From: a plasmid
Length of the DNA stretch: 15,626 nucleotides
Direction: 5' to 3' (one strand)
Sequence record: NZ_CP014240.1
Part shown: piece after piece, positions 6,001 through 12,000 of the stretch
Layout of the letters: every line of letters starts with the position of its first letter
Numbering within the stretch: position 1 is the first letter of the stretch
Program-made: the position numbers

Positions 6001-9000
6001 AGGGCGACCACCTTATCACCTATGAAAAGCTCGACAAAGCGGGCAATTATCGCGAAGTCGTGAGCAAGACAGAGCGTCACGGACAAATTCGGCAGGAGAT
6101 GACCGCCGCGCCGATCGGCGAGTATCGAAAGAACTTGTTGCTTGTATCGACCAACGCCGACCGCAACGCATACAACAAGGAAATACGCGCCGAATATGTG
6201 AAGCGCGGCGAATTGGAGGAGGGGAAAAAATACGCCGTCACCGTGCGCGACGGCGACAAAGAGCGCACCGAAAGCCGCAACTTTGCCAAAGGCGACCGCA
6301 TTATCTTCACCGCCAACGACAACAAGATAGGCGCGAAGAATGGGACGATGGCGCAGATAGAGCGAATCGACGGCGACCGAATCACGGCGACCACGGACGC
6401 AGGAAAGCGGATAGAGTGGGACATGAGCAAATATAACAGCGTAGACCATAGCTATGCTGTGACGAACTACAAGGCGCAGGGAATGACCGTTGATAAAGTC
6501 GTCGTAGACATGAACACCAAAGGGACGGCACAAAGCAGAAATGCGCTTTATGTGGACATCAGCCGCGCACGTCGTGAAGCCGTTGTATATACGGACAATA
6601 AAGCGAAGCTGGAACGGCAAACGAGGCATTTCGCGCACAAAGTCACCAGCAAGGACTTTTCCCGCCGCATTGAAACCATGCGGGCACAAGGAGGAGTGAA
6701 GAACAACGACCGCTATCACGCGCCAGACGTTGACCGCCGCGCCGCGCTGGAAAAAGCCTTGAAGCAGATAAAGGAGCACACTTTAGAGCGTCCTGCCTCT
6801 ATCGTCGCCAAGGAGAAAGCCGCAGAAGAACGCGCCAAACAGGCGGCGGCGGAACAGGCGAAAGCCGCAGCCAAAACCAAAGCCGCGCCGCAGCCGTCGC
6901 AGGAAGCCGAGATAGAAACGGTATATAGCAGATAACAGGAGGTAAAAATCATGGGATTTCTGGACGAGAGCAAGAAAAGCAACGAGGAAGCAAAGCAGAG
7001 CTACGAAGAAATGAAGGGGGTTTATGAAGCCTTGCGGCAGGACGTGAACCGCTTGACCGCCGCCGTTGATAAAGTCGCCGCTCCATCGTTCAAGCGGACG
7101 ATAGAGAGCCGCGACCGTGACCTTTTGGAGGACGTAACGAGGCAAATGCGGGACATCAGCGAGGAGCTAGAGAGAAGCACGGCGGGCTTGAACATCGTCA
7201 ACCGCGAAAATAACAGGCTTGTCTATATTGTCTTTGCCGTGTTTGTTGTTGTTGGTCTGTTTTGCTTTTACAATATGTACCAAATGCGGCAGGAGGTCAA
7301 AGCGACAAACGAGAAGTACGACCTTATCACCTCGATTCTTTCGGGGGATTCGCATTATTGGTTTAACGGCGAAAACTATACCATCGGCAGAGAATCGCCG
7401 ACGGGCGAATATTTCCAGAAAGTCTATAACGACTATCAAGAAAAGAAACAACAACAGCAACAGCAGAAGCAAAACTAGATAATAACTGGATATAGCCCGA
7501 ACGGGCGCACAGAAAAAGCCGTGATTTTCCGTCACGGCTTTTCTTTTGGCTAGGGATTTTATCTTTTCTGAAACCACGCAAAAAAGCCGTTTTCGCGTTC
7601 AGACGGTCGCGCATCCGCTCCCGATCTGGACGAGAAAGAGGCAAAAAGAGATATTCCCCTGCGGGGGGCAACCTGCCACAGCGGGCGACGAACCTGCCTA
7701 AAGGCAGAACCCTCGCCCTACAGCCGCGGCAGGTCTAAAAAATAGATATGCACTTTCGGCTTGTTTACTATGGTAAACGGTGCTATAATAGACATCTGGA
7801 AGGGTTTTCTATCAAAGGAGGAAAGAAATTATGGCACTTATGAAAGGCGGCAACACCGCACCAGAGCAAATGCAGGATACGGCATACACGCCAGAACAGC
7901 AGAGAGAAATCAAGCTGGGTATGATTATGCTGAAAGCCCGTCGGGTATGGCGTATTTTCTGCCTCGTCATGTGCGGTATCGGCTTGTTGTTCTCCGTGTT
8001 CAACACTATCGCCTACGGGCAGAGCTTTATCGGCGGTATTCTGAGCGTGATTATCGGCTGGGCGCTTCTCTATGTGTTTGTCCTTTATGTTTTCCTCTAT
8101 TTGCTTGCGGGGAGAACGATTCAATTCATTCTTTTTGTGCGTGACCTTGTGGGAGGGAATAAAGACACGCGCCTATAATGCGGTACGCGCCGCCTATCCG
8201 CGAGGTTAGGCGGCTTTTTTCTACACTGAGGAGGAAAGCGACAATGGGCTTTTTCGATTCCATCAAAAGCATTATCAATCTTGACTTGAACGCCCCGAAA
8301 AAGGAGGAGGAAATTCAAAACACCGAACGCCCCGAAGGGTTCGCCCTCGGCATCGGGACGAGCACGGGCGAACTTCACCAGCGCGGACACGCCGCAGGAC
8401 TATGGGCGAATCAGTATATTTGGCTTGTCAATGACGACGCTTGCCAGAATATCGCCGTTTTCGGCGGTATCGGCGCGGGCAAGACGACGCGCGTTATCAA
8501 CCCGATCTTATTTCAGTGCCTTGCCTATTCCGACGTTGGAGGGCTGATATTCGACATCAAGGGCGACTTTGTGGAGAGCGTTCAGAGCTTTGCAGAATGG
8601 CACGGGCGCGAGGTTCACAAAATCGGCGTAGGAGCCGACAGCGCAGGGACGAATCTCTTAAAGGGACTTACGCCAGAACAGGCGGCGGGCTTCCTGCAAT
8701 CGACATTTTACCTCACAGGCGGCGCGACAAACGATAGCTTTTGGATTCAGTCGGCGACCGCGCTTATTCAGAACACTTTAGGCTTGCTGGAAGCCCTCGG
8801 CGACAAATACTATAACCTTGAAAAGCTGTATCAGTATATCTTTTTTGAAGATGTACGCAAGGCAATAGACATCATGCTTGACGATGTGAAACTGCCAGAG
8901 GGGACGCTTGCGGCGCGGAATCTTGCGAACTACAAGGGATATTATCAAAACGTGTTCATGAGCATGGATATAAAAATGCGTGAATCCATCAAAGGGACGC

Positions 9001-12000
9001 TTTCGACCGTTCTATCCCCCTTCCAGAATCCCGAACTTATCGACGCTTTCAGCGGGACAGATGGGGACTATGACCTTGCGCGGATTCTTTCGGGCGACAT
9101 CGTATTAGTAGACCTGCCGCTTGCGAAATGGGCGACGGCTGGGAAAGTCGTCTATACGATGATAAAGCTACGCTTCTTCAACCTCCTGCAGGCGCGGCAG
9201 GTGGATAAATCCATGCCGCAGAACTATGTTTTTTTCATGTGCGACGAGTATCAAAACATCATCAGCGCAAGCAATCAAGGGCTTTCTGACCTCTCCTTTT
9301 GGGATAAATCCCGATCGGCGCATTGTGTCGGTATCATCTCAACGCAGAGTATCAGCGCGTTCAAGGCGGCAATCGGAAACCCGCAGTTATCCGACACGGT
9401 ACTTGCGAACTTTCGGCAGAAGATATTCTTCAAAACTGAGGACATGGAAACCTTGCGCTATATCAATAGCCTTGCGGGGCGCGTGGAAGTCGCACGGCAG
9501 AGCTACAACTATTCCAGCGGCGAGAGCCAGCAGAACACCGACTTTTTCAAGGCAAACCGCACCAGCAACACAAGCATAAATACGCAGATCGTTGAGCGGC
9601 AACTTGTAGACGCGAATCTCGTGCGGCAACTGACAGGAAACCTTGCGCTTGCGTTCCTCAACGTCGAGGGCGAGAGCGCGGACGATGTTCTTGTTATGTC
9701 GCCCCTCTACCCGAATAACCTTGAACAGCAGTTAGAGGGATAGAGGGCGCATACATGACGAAAATCACCATGAGCATACGGACAGAGCCAGAACTAAAGG
9801 CAAAGCTGGAACACATCACAAAAGGTTCTGGAATGAGCCTTTCCGACGCTATCAAATTGGCGTTATTCCGTTATGTGGACGACTACGAGAAGGAGCGCGG
9901 GCGAATCCCGCAGGAAGAAATCGACCGCCGCGCCGCCGAGCTTTTGAAGAAGTCTGAGAAAAGGAGGAAATAGCACATGGGCTTTCTGAAAAAATTCCAA
10001 GACGCAGGGAAGGAAGCGACCGTCAAAGCGTTCACGCTGGGCGAGGAAGCGGACGCGCTGGGGCGCAAGGCGGCAAAGCTGGAACAGAAGAAGGACAAGA
10101 CCAAGGAGGAGAGCGAACAAGTCAAGGAGCTACGAAAGCAAGCCGAGCGCGTGAGGCAACAGCAGGAACAGGCGAAAGCCCTATCTCGTAATATGGGACT
10201 GGGCGAGAAGATATTGCGGTGCTACTTCACCTATAAGATGGCGTCGCTTGCCTGTCATACGCTTGTAGGGCTTGCGGGAGGATATGAGCGCAACGAGGCA
10301 ATCGGACGCGCTGTAACAAGCAGTATCGACCGCGCGACCGACCGATTGACGGACAATATCATCGACCGCACCAACAGCGAGGAGGGCGAGGAGCGCGACA
10401 TAAACGAACGCCGCGCCCAAATGATAGAGCAAACCCTTGAATCCTTCCAGCACATGAGCGACCAAGCCGCAGAACAGGGACTAACCGAGCCAGACGCGCC
10501 CTTATTGCCCGAGGCAGACCGCGCACGGATTCAAGAACTTGCCGACATCAGCCGCGACACGGAAAACCCGCAACAGGCAGAGCTATACGCCAGCAAGGCG
10601 CAGGAGCTAGGGCTTGACTACGACGAAGCATTAACGGCGTTTCGGCAGGACATGGACGCGCCCGACATCGAGCGCGTCCGCGAAACCGAACGGACGCAGG
10701 AGCGGACAGAGGAAGCCGATAAGGAAAAAGAAACCGCCTCTTACGAGCTGGAAATGTGAAATTTTCCGCCGTAACTTTCATTTTTCGCCCCGCTTGCGTG
10801 CCGATCGGCGCGGATGCGCGACCAACGAACGCAAAAAAGCCGTGATTTTTTCATCACGGCTTTTTCTGTGCGCTCCTCCGAGGCGGCGCAAAATCGGCGA
10901 AAATGCCTATACTTTCCTATGCGCCGTCGAAAATGGAGGGCTTAGAGGCGATTCTAGGCGGTCAAAATTTTCCGCAGCGGGCATTTTCCCACCGATTTTA
11001 GCCCCGCTTCCCTGCCTTGACATCTTCCAGCGTCAAGCCTAATTGCTCCATACGGCGCATGACGTGCGGCGAGGACGCACCGCCCCGACGCAAAAGCCGC
11101 ACCTCAATATCACTGAGCGGCGCAAGCCCGCGCGGTTCTTCCTCCGACATCGGCGGCGCGTCCTCCGTGTCGTCGTCGAATACGGCGTTAAGGACACGTT
11201 CGCGCACTTCGGCGCGGCGGCGGGCTTTTTCTTTCTCGTGCTCCTGCTCCGCCTTTTTGACTTCCTGCCGTTCGCGCTCCTTGCCCGCCTCGTCCCTCTC
11301 AATGCAGGACATCAGCCAGCCGCCTAGATTCTTCTTTCCGTCGCGGTACTTGTACGCATAGCGGATATTTGCGTCGAGATATTCCAGCGGATATTTCTGC
11401 ACCAGCTTCAGCGCGGCTTTCTCCGTGATGTTCCAACGGTCGGGATTCATCAGACGGGCGAGAATATCCCGCTTGTCGGTCGTCGGGACATCATCGAGCG
11501 CGGCGACCTCCTCCGGCGGGACTGCCGCCCCGTCGTCGTCGTGCTTGCGCTCCATGTAGAAGGTGAACCCTGCAATCTTGCGCCCTTCTTTGTATGCGTC
11601 ATACCATACATGATAAATCGTCTTTTCGTTGATTTCTCTGATTGGCGTATCAAGGACGCGAACACGGAAATTATCTAATCGCCCTTCGTATAGACCTTCT
11701 GGGACGTTGAGAAGAAAGCGTATTTCGGACAGCGTAAACTTGCGGTATATGAACGGCTTCCCCTTCTTCAAATAGCCCTGATATTCAAGCAGTAGCTCCA
11801 TAATGCGCCAGCCGTATTCCGACGAAAGCGGGAAAACGTGCTTGAGTGCATATCTTGTATATGACTGATTCAGAATATCCAAGATATAGGGCTTCATTTC
11901 ATCATCGAACTTTATCAATAGCCCCTTTTGGGGGAAGTAATCCATTTTCGCGTAGATATGGCGCAGACCAAAGCCGCCGCCGTCAAAAGCCAGCTCTATA

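Follow-up and report, generated by a model that had tools for sequence, protein, structure and literature searches.

A split coupling protein on a mobilizable plasmid, with a separate gene for a putative two-TM anchor and a putative leaky terminator ahead of a TM-less VirD4/TrwB-type ATPase

Introduction

Coupling proteins that lack a TMD and have a small membrane partner are already recognised as a class, with TraJ and TraI of pIP501 as the prototype (PMC7434980, PMC7431656, PMC12857230, PMC13037476) and TraI as the proposed anchor for the TM-less TraJ (PMC13037476, PMC12857230). Deletion of the TM domain eliminates the function of TrwB, PcfC and CloDF13 MobB (PMC7431656), and removal of the TM helices of TrwB abolishes transfer (PMC7434980); a membrane partner is therefore expected for a TM-less type IV coupling protein (T4CP). 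The presence of a T4CP on a mobilizable plasmid without a T4SS has been described as rare (PMC7431656, PMC7434980). Internal terminators lead to differential expression in the conjugation operon of pLS20, and the whole pIP501 operon has just two predicted terminators, neither of them at the TraI–TraJ junction (PMC8955417).

An earlier note on plasmid record NZ_CP014240.1 proposed a split T4CP, consisting of a two-TM gene and a TM-less ATPase with a terminator between them, and did not recall such a layout as described. In that respect the note went too far, as a TM-less T4CP with a separate small membrane partner is already known. What is apparently new is that promoter/operator, anchor and putative leaky terminator form a self-contained cassette, which precedes the T4CP and a ribbon-helix-helix (RHH) gene. 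Here, we analyse this arrangement in 15,626 nt of the record (the window; coordinates refer to its strand).

Results

The window contains the transfer (MOB) region of a mobilizable plasmid of ~12 kb. The gene set combines a MOBF relaxase with a coupling protein of its own, and T4SS genes are absent from the plasmid; likewise, sibling contigs of 12–13 kb carry NikA-like, TrwC, T4CP, Rep3 and ParA genes and lack T4SS genes. The plasmid family probably originates from Negativicutes, and transfer would use the T4SS of a helper element. The features of the region are:

3471–3887, + strand: NikA-like RHH relaxosome accessory gene, first in the relaxase operon (Pfam, position)
3894–6935, + strand: MOBF (TrwC-type) relaxase-helicase (Pfam, NCBIfam)
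6951–7478, + strand: 175-aa coiled-coil protein (orf175), last gene of the relaxase operon (hydropathy, homologues)
7514–7542, + strand: terminator-like hairpin closing the relaxase operon (12-pair stem, then CTTTTGG)
7761–7789, + strand: extended −10 promoter of the anchor cassette (sequence)
7831–8178, + strand: 115-aa two-TM protein, putative membrane anchor/adaptor of the T4CP (hydropathy, co-occurrence)
8189–8220, + strand: intrinsic-terminator-like hairpin and T6 (sequence, folding, conservation)
8230–8234, + strand: Shine–Dalgarno GGAGG of the T4CP gene (9 nt 5' of the ATG)
8244–9743, + strand: TM-less VirD4/TrwB-type T4CP, 499 aa (Pfam, AF2, Foldseek)
9755–9973, + strand: 72-aa ribbon-helix-helix (CopG-type) protein (Pfam RHH_1 4.6e-5, over cutoff)
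9977–10759, + strand: conserved 260-aa protein (orf260), final gene of the unit (homologue in lineage L109)

The relaxase matched TrwC (5.2e-48) and AAA_30 (1.7e-47) in Pfam and MobF in NCBIfam (1.2e-43, over cutoff). The match of the first gene to NikA-like was under the gathering score (E 3.4e-4); its position is kept among sibling plasmids. A perfect 11-nt inverted repeat lies within the hairpin that closes this operon. At the other end of the region, orf260 gave no family match in Pfam and NCBIfam searches and has a homologue of 64% identity at the equivalent position in L109.

A coupling protein without TM segments

The ATPase carries a Walker A motif GGIGAGKTT and the motif FDIKGDF, and it matched TrwB_AAD_bind (4.8e-14), T4SS-DNA_transf (4.9e-13) and TraG-D_C (3.9e-11) in Pfam, all over the gathering scores. 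A Foldseek search of its AF2 model (pLDDT 82.7, pTM 0.82) against the PDB gave TrwBΔN70 as the top match (E 7.5e-14, TM 0.62–0.71), with Cagβ and DotL among the other top matches. The protein is a genuine VirD4/TrwB-type T4CP, equivalent to the soluble TrwBΔN70 body; this bears out the VirD4/TraG-like assignment of the earlier note, and the Pfam and structural matches reject a HerA/FtsK identity. The hydropathy scan agreed with the note on the lack of a TM segment, as no 19-residue window between 8244 and 9743 had a Kyte–Doolittle mean of at least 1.6. A second in-frame ATG at 8178 overlaps the stop codon of the upstream gene (TAATG) and would put the hairpin within the coding sequence. We rejected this start and set it at 8244, where the MGFF/MGLF N-terminus common to all relatives begins; in L042–L055, an in-frame stop lies one codon 5' of the equivalent start.

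The 55 TM-less relatives, in which Walker A falls at about residues 70–125, formed a single bipartition with zero fused proteins inside it when an NJ tree was built from the cytoplasmic domain, and the sister relatives, at most 50% identical, have N-terminal TM helices fused to the ATPase. On the evidence of these sequences, the TM-less state is a conserved monophyletic trait and represents a clade-wide evolutionary split.

A two-TM protein that accompanies the TM-less ATPase

As the earlier note had read it, the 115-aa product of the gene at 7831–8178 has two hydrophobic stretches, at about residues 42–60 and 70–100. It matched no family in Pfam or NCBIfam, and a library of 1.84e9 proteins held its family as standalone proteins only, 107–128 aa long. 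An HMM of the family matched all 40 TM-less loci with sufficient flanking DNA and none of 79 fused loci; in 13 fused loci, the gene immediately 5' of the T4CP had no TM segment. The co-occurrence of the anchor with the TM-less ATPase is strict, and we infer that the two proteins are in physical contact. This constant company supports the pairing of the two genes in the note, although they are not always adjacent: the anchor gene sits away from the T4CP in L117, L120 and L061. BLASTP (best E 0.03), hhalign (probability 3%) and hmmsearch (best real match 17.3 bits, best shuffled 13.9) did not establish that the anchor is homologous to the TM domain of the fused relatives. An N-terminal hydrophobic-x-[KR]-G motif is found in the anchors and also in the first 40 residues of 26 of 61 fused proteins.

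Two readings would dissolve the pair. That distant relatives of the ATPase are fused could suggest a sequencing or assembly artefact, a frameshift within a normally fused T4CP gene, for which we see practically no chance. The identical two-ORF arrangement recurs in dozens of assemblies made independently from separate samples, 54–147 nt with a hairpin, a Shine–Dalgarno sequence and in-frame stops lie between the ORFs, a fused form of the anchor family was never found, and the monophyly of the TM-less proteins adds to what has already refuted this explanation. The 115-aa product might instead have an independent role at the membrane, for instance in entry exclusion or as a toxin/holin-like protein, and merely adjoin the T4CP, the soluble T4CP acting anchor-free or via the 1-TM orf175. 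Such independence would fit a gene that has its own promoter and terminator, is separable from the T4CP and could not be linked to T4CP TM domains by homology, and orf175 is indeed conserved nearby, its L117 homologue standing immediately 5' of the T4CP. We nevertheless consider it improbable, given the perfect co-occurrence with TM-less T4CPs and absence from fused-T4CP loci, two TMs and predicted cytoplasmic ends that fit the missing domain, the motif common to anchors and many fused T4CPs, and the loss of function on TM-domain deletion in TrwB, PcfC and CloDF13 MobB (PMC7431656).

A hairpin and a promoter delimit the anchor gene

The 8-bp stem and T6 that the earlier note had placed between the two genes are present: the arms GCCGCCTA (8189–8196) and TAGGCGGC (8207–8214) enclose a 10-nt loop that contributes two more inner pairs, and the T6 follows at 8215–8220. 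Folding of 8179–8230 gave −21.7 kcal/mol (z = −2.6), equalled by 2 of 200 shuffles. An automated terminator scan missed the hairpin because it allowed loops of at most 8 nt. In the predicted folds, the Shine–Dalgarno sequence of the T4CP gene base-pairs with the U-tract.

A stable hairpin and a T-rich run follow the anchor in 11 diverged lineages, the window and 10 others (z −2.5 to −7.2), whose T4CPs are 56–100% identical to that of the window. At least seven of the stems are unrelated in sequence, while the onset lies 7–16 nt past the anchor stop in all 11 (10 nt in the window) and the hairpin ends 23–29 nt before the T4CP ATG. By comparison of these sequences, the hairpin is real beyond chance and conserved in structure and position. 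It is not obligatory, since L116, with an anchor–T4CP gap of 4 nt, has none. In L117 and L061, the hairpin follows the anchor although the next gene is not that of the T4CP, which makes it a part of the anchor cassette rather than a dedicated T4CP gate. Canonical T5–T8 tracts come right after the stem in the window, L114, L118, L039 and L117. The U-tract is weak in the AT-rich lineage L042–L055 and in L115 (AATATTTT, CTTTCAG), whose hairpins may terminate poorly or have another role, and also in L061, where the stem is stable.

Upstream of the anchor, the promoter consists of TTGTTT (7761–7766), a 17-nt spacer and TGcTATAAT (7781–7789). It overlaps the putative palindromic operator GTTTACTATGGTAAAC (7763–7778), which occurs once in the window, so this element of the note was present as well. 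In L031, L039, L109, L113, L114, L117, L118 and L120, an extended −10 promoter accompanied by a palindrome or by direct repeats likewise lies 5' of the anchor, the palindrome-or-repeat pattern being seen in all lineages examined; at the sequence level, promoter and palindrome are conserved. The 72-aa RHH protein is a candidate repressor at the operator, which would amount to autoregulation. Its homologues lie 3' of the T4CP across all lineages examined, and in L117 the homologue (E 8e-12) is the gene after the anchor hairpin.

Comparison with described systems

The pair most alike is TraJ (Orf10) and TraI (Orf9) of the Inc18 plasmids pIP501/pRE25, with a small two-TM gene 5' of a TM-less VirD4-like ATPase (PMC7434980, PMC13037476, PMC12857230). 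In pRE25, the partner has 143 aa and TMs at 11–29 and 68–86, and the ATPase is TM-less. BLASTP nevertheless gave no significant similarity to the window pair, either between the ATPases (E 0.064) or between the anchors (E 3.1), and CD1115 is the family of the pIP501-type ATPase. The two pRE25 genes share 8 nt and have no hairpin at their junction, whereas a hairpin separates those of the window. Owing to this lack of significant similarity and the different gene junction, the split in the window looks, from sequence, independent of the pIP501-type split. Moreover, pIP501 is self-transmissible with a full T4SS operon, while T4SS genes are absent from the window plasmid.

TrwB of R388 shares the cytoplasmic fold, Walker A/B and the all-alpha domain, and it too is linked to a TrwC-type MOBF relaxase, but it has its two TM helices within the same polypeptide; relative to it, the window T4CP is a natural "ΔN" form whose TM part is encoded apart, by a gene that has its own promoter and terminator. 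CloDF13 is similarly a T4SS-less mobilizable plasmid with its own coupling protein, MobB, which has, however, a fused and essential three-helix TM domain (PMC7431656); its relaxase is MOBC1 (PMC7434980) rather than MOBF, and it has been studied in E. coli (PMC7431656), whereas the window family probably resides in Negativicutes. The nearest named relatives of the ATPase are fused T4CPs with 36–45% identity over >90% of the length, from small plasmids (15–33 kb) of Proteobacteria and Negativicutes: Aquicella lusitana, Xanthomonas citri, Aeromonas caviae, P. alcaligenes NC_005909 and Sporomusa aerivorans pSATMAO3. Their gap to the upstream gene is −4 to 37 nt, with neither an anchor-family gene nor the hairpin, and in pSATMAO3 the T4CP gene lies immediately 3' of a relaxase-sized ORF (1212 aa). 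The pLS20 family (conAn) likewise has intrinsic terminators between codirectional transfer genes and differentially expresses subsets of them (PMC8955417). The window plasmid showed neither a conAn-like leader nor such an antitermination system, and it differs in having a single terminator behind one small gene, inside a two-part coupling protein.

Discussion

Taken as a whole, we lean slightly towards a split T4CP with a separate anchor, a leaky terminator and RHH repression as the best explanation. The anchor would provide the membrane attachment that the fused TM domain supplies in sister T4CPs, and probably also docks onto the T4SS of the helper element. Its gene would form a self-contained cassette with a strong extended −10 promoter and operator, the ORF and an intrinsic terminator. 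As the 23-nt gap between the T-run and the ATG is too short for a promoter, and the relaxase operon is terminated, T4CP, RHH and orf260 need read-through from the anchor; with this as their sole route, the hairpin at 8189–8220 is most likely a leaky terminator that allows both termination and read-through. This would yield plentiful monocistronic anchor mRNA and less of an anchor–T4CP–RHH–orf260 mRNA. The RHH protein, whose gene lies past the terminator, probably acts at the palindrome as repressor of the promoter; the read-through products would thereby stay at a fixed low level, with the anchor in excess. An anchor–ATPase ratio of presumably 1:1 counts against the need for such an excess.

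The same hairpin could be a regulated attenuator, with a signal such as a ribosome ending the anchor ORF at the stem base, a plasmid or helper antiterminator or an antisense RNA switching on read-through; T4CP production would then be limited to times when transfer is possible. The onset of the stem 7–16 nt past the anchor stop in every lineage is close enough for a terminating ribosome to disturb its folding, though ordinary terminators often sit close to a stop codon as well. We regard this as unlikely: searches around 7400–8400 yielded no alternative antiterminator structure, no antisense promoter and no Rfam match, and stems that differ wholly between lineages speak against an antiterminator, protein or RNA, that recognises a specific sequence. 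Other operons are known to show segmental mRNA stability, and the hairpin could likewise be a 3' stabiliser or processing barrier in a fully transcribed operon from which a cleaved anchor segment survives longer, so that decay, not termination, sets the ratio. The stoichiometric outcome would be identical, and the conserved stems with weak U-tracts in L042–L055, L115 and L061 would suit it. It still seems to us a poor candidate, because the T5–T8 immediately past the stem in the window, L114, L118, L039 and L117 is the signature of intrinsic termination and the T-rich run is retained even where the stem sequence is fully replaced. For attenuation there are, on the other hand, precedents in conjugation operons whose control involves termination and antitermination, e.g. 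pLS20 conAn (PMC8955417) and an attenuation mechanism from 2026 (PMC13401043).

Besides the putative 115-aa anchor, orf175 is a possible second membrane partner: it has a single TM helix at about residues 90–108 by hydropathy, and homologues stand at the equivalent position in L109, L114 and L117 (E 2e-13 to L117_181).

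Results

Two adjacent ORFs of the transfer region, a 115-aa protein with two transmembrane (TM) segments (the anchor) and a 499-aa ATPase, together appear to make up one type IV coupling protein (T4CP). The features of this region are as follows.

Features of the transfer region.
3471-3887, + strand, NikA-like ribbon-helix-helix (RHH) gene
3894-6935, + strand, TrwC/MOBF relaxase-helicase
6951-7478, + strand, 175-aa one-TM protein
7514-7542, terminator-like hairpin, ending the relaxase operon
7831-8178, + strand, 115-aa ORF (anchor), two hydrophobic segments
8244-9743, + strand, 499-aa ORF (T4CP), assigned by Pfam
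9755-9973, + strand, 72-aa RHH gene
9977-10759, + strand, 260-aa ORF (orf260)

Three Pfam families matched the 499-aa protein above their cutoffs: TrwB_AAD_bind (4.8e-14, 52.5 bits vs. 20.5), T4SS-DNA_transf (4.9e-13, 49.2 bits vs. 20.1), and TraG-D_C (3.9e-11, 43.4 bits vs. 22). The Walker A motif GGIGAGKTT lies at residues 74-82, and K80, T81, D334, and E335 are invariant in our family alignment (A1). The AlphaFold2 model, computed from 14 family members, had a mean pLDDT of 82.7 and a pTM of 0.82, falling below 50 only in two loops and in residues 1-25, which are predicted to be disordered. A single-sequence phmmer search of the PDB with the ATPase gave no match and the family profile reached only DotL, so confirmation of the fold comes from the structure search, where the top matches were TrwBdeltaN70 (E 7.5e-14, TM-score 0.62-0.71), Cagbeta, and DotL, with HerA ranking lower at TM-scores of at most 0.5. 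These matches identify the protein as a VirD4/TrwB-type T4CP with a predicted TrwB-like fold (nucleotide-binding and all-alpha domains), as the earlier note had proposed, and not as a HerA/FtsK protein. Unlike the canonical VirD4 type, it does not carry the N-terminal TM domain in the same polypeptide: no TM segment was found in the ATPase and no hydrophobic window reached 1.6. The natural protein thus corresponds to the soluble body of TrwB, which was obtained from TrwB only by deleting 70 N-terminal residues.

The position of the start codon decides whether the DNA between the two genes is coding. An in-frame ATG at 8178 overlaps the anchor stop codon as TAATG, and starting there would place the hairpin described below within the ORF. 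This start was ruled out: an MGFF/MGLF N-terminus is common to all TM-less relatives, down to 46% identity, relatives of the AT-rich lineage (L042-L055) have an in-frame stop one codon 5' of the MGFF-type start, and a GGAGG box lies 9 nt before ATG 8244. The gene therefore starts at 8244, and the hairpin is intergenic.

We compared 120 homologues of the ATPase for TM segments and the position of Walker A. All homologues with at least 54% identity and a deeper group at 44-47% were TM-less, with Walker A at around residues 70-125, whereas the remaining relatives (at most 50% identity) had Walker A at residues 110-300 and one to several N-terminal TM helices. A neighbour-joining tree calculated from 453 columns of the cytoplasmic domain placed all 55 TM-less proteins in one bipartition that contained no fused protein. 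This single bipartition is consistent with a single ancient loss of the TM domain, and the split is, judged from this tree, a conserved and monophyletic trait. A frameshift artefact in the window, which the earlier note had named as a way its proposal could fail, is ruled out by the TM-less clade, by the same ORF pair recurring in relatives, and by the anchor family never being fused.

For the last point, 1.84 billion representative proteins were searched exhaustively with HMMER; only 18 anchor clusters were found, all standalone proteins of 107-128 aa bar one 64-aa fragment and none fused to an ATPase; a word-indexed protein search found near-identical proteins only. With a profile of the family, we found a member in 40 of the 40 TM-less loci with enough flanking DNA, two TM-less loci without a match having been left out as they had less than 140 nt of upstream sequence, and in 0 of the 79 fused loci. 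In the 13 fused loci that we inspected, the gene directly 5' of the T4CP gene abuts it and lacks a TM segment, and in Sporomusa aerivorans pSATMAO3 a relaxase-sized ORF (1,212 aa) is directly followed by a fused T4CP. Our case that the small protein takes the place of the missing TM domain rests mainly on this complementary distribution, which makes the 115-aa protein the constant partner and candidate membrane anchor of the TM-less ATPase. That the 115-aa product is instead an unrelated membrane protein seems to us quite improbable on the same distribution. The observation of the earlier note is not only confirmed but considerably strengthened, and its interpretation finds support in part.

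The anchor diverges much faster than the ATPase: a relative, L109, shares 51% identity with the window in the anchor vs. 88% in the ATPase, and the AT-rich lineage 21-28% vs. 58%. Its best-conserved part is the C-terminal tail after the second TM helix (..LYLKDLFGGxKxTRL), and this tail is the obvious candidate for the contact with the ATPase. Descent of the anchor from the TM domain of a fused T4CP was considered and found no significant support against shuffled and reversed controls. The best BLASTP E-value between anchor and fused TM domains was 0.03, the hhalign probability 3%, and the best real hmmsearch score 17.3 bits vs. 13.9 bits for the best shuffled control. The sole hint of common descent is an N-terminal hydrophobic-x-[KR]-G motif found in the anchors (MALMKGG, MLKRGFEG, or MLQRGST) and within the first 40 residues of 26 of 61 fused proteins (MLLRGNVG or MALQRGTY, else ...LRRGxxP).

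The gene at 6951-7478, invariably located after the relaxase gene and before the anchor/T4CP genes, encodes a conserved coiled-coil protein with one TM helix. The rearranged locus L117, described below, also encodes a homologue of it (E 2e-13). It could be another membrane component of the coupling complex.

A conserved hairpin between the two genes

The gap between the anchor and T4CP genes holds a hairpin with the arms GCCGCCTA (8189-8196) and TAGGCGGC (8207-8214), followed by T6 (8215-8220). Its 8-bp stem with 6 G-C pairs begins 10 nt after the anchor stop codon, folds at -21.7 kcal/mol (z = -2.6), and lacks a T-run on the reverse strand. A built-in terminator scan missed it for the sole reason that it allows loops of at most 8 nt and this loop has 10. 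A stable hairpin is found in the same gap (54-147 nt) in the window lineage and in ten further lineages whose T4CPs are 56-88% identical to that of the window (L109, L039, L041, L042, L049, L054, L113, L114, L115, and L118). The eleven have z-scores between -2.5 and -7.2, with folds as stable in 0-3 of 200 shuffles. There are at least seven unrelated stem sequences among them.

Stem sequences of hairpins in the anchor-T4CP gap.
Window, GCCGCCTA
L039, GCCTTCGAGCTT
L041, ACCGCCTAAAAC
L042-type lineage, GGGGCTAT
L113, GTCCCTCGCTG
L114, AAAAGCGGTCT
L115, AAGCCCTTCCGC

Every stem starts 7-16 nt past the stop codon, ends 23-29 nt ahead of the ATG, and has a T-rich run behind it. The window, L114, L118, and L039 have tracts of T5-T8, and those of the AT-rich lineage and L115 are weaker. 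In L116, where the two genes are 4 nt apart, the hairpin is absent. With its G+C-rich stem, its U-tract, and the conservation of structure rather than sequence, 8189-8220 is a putative intrinsic (Rho-independent) terminator.

A hairpin next to transfer genes could also mark an oriT nick site. This was ruled out, as the sequence after the stem is unconserved among lineages with homologous relaxases and always T-rich. In predicted folds of 8215-8260 and its equivalents in L039, L049, L114, and L118, the purine-rich Shine-Dalgarno sequence of the T4CP gene pairs with the U-tract or with the UUUUU(U) of the Phe-Phe codons conserved in MGFF, and in L041 a second large hairpin (4911-4993, about -30 kcal/mol) ends in the T4CP Shine-Dalgarno sequence (unpaired probability 0.01). 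Sequestration of this site was rejected as an inconsistent feature, the unpaired probability varying from 0.01 to 0.77 across folds.

The anchor gene as a putative transcriptional cassette

The anchor gene is preceded by a promoter with the elements TTGTTT, 17 nt, and TGcTATAAT (7761-7789). Between the hexamers lies the palindrome GTTTACTATGGTAAAC (7763-7778), which is unique in the window; promoter, palindrome, and hairpin are thus all present as the earlier note had described them. In L031, L039, L109, L113, L114, L118, and L120, too, the anchor gene has on its 5' side a comparable extended -10 promoter accompanied by a palindrome or direct repeats.

The earlier note had asked whether the two ORFs stay adjacent in relatives. 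They do in the window and the hairpin lineages, and they do not in L117, L061, and L120. In L117 (6032-9475), the T4CP gene follows the one-TM protein gene in the relaxase operon and the anchor gene lies downstream of it, with an extended -10 promoter and palindromic repeats on its 5' side and a strong hairpin with a T5 tract on its 3' side; the gene directly 3' of that hairpin encodes a homologue of the 72-aa RHH protein of the window (E 8e-12). This locus is a natural rearrangement that parts the cassette from the T4CP gene. In L061, the anchor gene lies one gene upstream of the T4CP gene, yet a strong hairpin still follows it. From these two loci, the conserved unit consists of promoter/operator, anchor, hairpin, optionally T4CP, RHH, and further genes. 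In L120 (1611-2108, 165 aa) and L061 (4618-5001, 127 aa), unrelated ORFs lacking TM segments are inserted between anchor and T4CP, each overlapping the T4CP start.

The window lineage also has a long nested imperfect palindrome at 7671-7734 (ACCTGCCACAGC..GGGCGACGAACCTGCCT / AGGCAGAACCCTCGCCC..GCCGCGGCAGGT), located 3' of the relaxase-operon terminator and 5' of the anchor promoter. Folded as single-stranded DNA it has a z of -2.5, and it is absent from L109. It could be an oriT, a single-strand origin, or a protein-binding site.

Discussion

The simplest reading of the hairpin is a leaky intrinsic terminator, with termination predicted from its structure. As there is no room for a promoter between the end of the T-run at 8220 and the ATG at 8244, and as the relaxase operon ends at the terminator at 7514-7542, the T4CP, RHH, and orf260 genes would be transcribed only by read-through of 8189-8220. 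Leaky termination would then yield much monocistronic anchor mRNA and less of the long mRNA. RHH proteins of the CopG/Arc/MetJ type typically bind palindromic or repeated operators, which makes the 72-aa RHH protein the obvious candidate repressor at the palindrome 7763-7778. If it binds there, a repressor encoded behind the terminator would act on the anchor promoter and clamp the level of the read-through product.

The same hairpin might instead be a regulated attenuator, a reading that we consider improbable. No Rfam family matched in 7400-8400 and the predicted folds around the hairpin contain no competing (antiterminator) structure, but its stem, starting 10 nt after the anchor stop codon, is close enough for interference by the ribosome. 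A role of the hairpin in stabilising RNA we hold to be similarly improbable. A bolder extension of the leaky-terminator reading takes the cassette and the RHH gene as a ratio-setting feedback circuit: the repressor would sense read-through transcription only, so that the T4CP is clamped low and the adaptor is kept in large excess, and the adaptor, being a separate and fast-evolving gene, would be an exchangeable module by which a plasmid lacking a T4SS docks its conserved ATPase on various helper secretion systems. In a conditional version, a helper element would trigger the read-through. We consider this extension unlikely; if true, coupling proteins would here have their "T4SS docking" function naturally separated from that of "substrate selection/motor".

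The role of the TM domain of coupling proteins is debated between docking to the type IV secretion system (T4SS), oligomerisation, and regulation of the ATPase, and it has usually been studied via artificial deletions, which kill function. The plasmid family described here offers a natural and evolutionarily stable two-gene T4CP in a Gram-negative-type clade, with fused sisters for direct comparison, and the proposed difference in expression of the two halves would make anchor/motor stoichiometry and modularity experimentally tractable.

The earlier note had held the whole layout to be undescribed. For the split this does not stand, since T4CPs lacking a TM domain are an established class in reviews; the pair that has been studied is TraJ/TraI of pIP501, where the two-TM protein TraI is the proposed anchor of TraJ (PMC7434980, PMC7431656, PMC13037476, PMC12857230). 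As in that class, a TM-less VirD4-like ATPase is co-inherited with a small multi-TM protein, encoded next to it in the window. The resemblance appears, on present evidence, to be one of analogous architecture and not common descent of the split. The window pair has no significant BLASTP similarity to the homologues on pRE25, which carries TraJ and TraI of the pIP501 type (E 0.064 for the ATPase and 3.1 for the anchor), and the window ATPase clusters with fused T4CPs encoded on small plasmids from Proteobacteria and Sporomusa. The split thus seems to have arisen independently, in a different branch of the family. The pairs also differ in layout: on pRE25, the two genes overlap by 8 nt, the first encoding a TraI-like protein (143 aa, two TM) and the second a TM-less TraJ-like one, and there is no hairpin; the pIP501 operon has two predicted terminators only, in traE and after traO (PMC8955417), whereas the anchor of the window has its own promoter and terminator. 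Further differences from pIP501 are the Gram-negative type of the T4CP clade and the carrier, a mobilizable plasmid without T4SS genes. Internal terminators create differential expression within conjugation operons of pLS20 (PMC8955417), and full-text literature searches gave no example of a two-part coupling protein with a terminator between its parts. The regulatory arrangement around the split therefore seems to be the novel part, and here the claim of the earlier note holds.

Few T4CPs are encoded on mobilizable plasmids, MobB of CloDF13 being an example (PMC7431656), and the present family adds to this small set. Family profile searches found no T4SS families among the window ORFs, and the backbone is shared by sibling contigs of 12-13 kb found in many human-gut metagenomes, which hold Rep3, ParA, NikA-like, TrwC, and T4CP genes only. 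Read from these contigs, the plasmid appears to be mobilizable and, like CloDF13, to bring its own T4CP, with no mating-pair-formation genes (VirB4 etc.) on the replicon. No near-identical DNA was found in PLSDB. In the siblings of about 12 kb, window position 13017 joins 942 and the segments 13018-15626 and 1-941 are absent, which makes these segments an insertion specific to the window copy. The insertion carries orf459, which encodes 459 aa and matches no family, as well as a full-length erm(B) (NCBIfam 565.7 bits vs. a cutoff of 525), has a G+C content of 0.34-0.42, lower than the backbone, and looks like a resistance module. The occurrence in the human gut and the erm(B) of the window copy make the family relevant to resistance plasmids that lack a T4SS and exploit resident conjugative elements.

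Features of the replication region.
10998-12275, - strand, Rep3 initiator gene
12289-12317, - strand, perfect promoter of the Rep3 gene (TTGACA-17-TATAAT)
12440-12562, iterons upstream of the Rep3 gene, 5.7 tandem copies of the 22-bp unit AAAAATCCGTAGGGATAAAAGC

Together, Rep3 and the iteron array look like a typical iteron origin. Among named relatives of the initiator, the best one lies on a Selenomonas ruminantium plasmid (53% identity), which suggests Negativicutes as hosts. The ORF that follows ParA (2232-2861, 209 aa) has no family match. Its long middle part is of low complexity and rich in Lys, Glu, Pro, and Ala, and its C-terminal end is ordered; the protein may be the centromere-binding partner of ParA.
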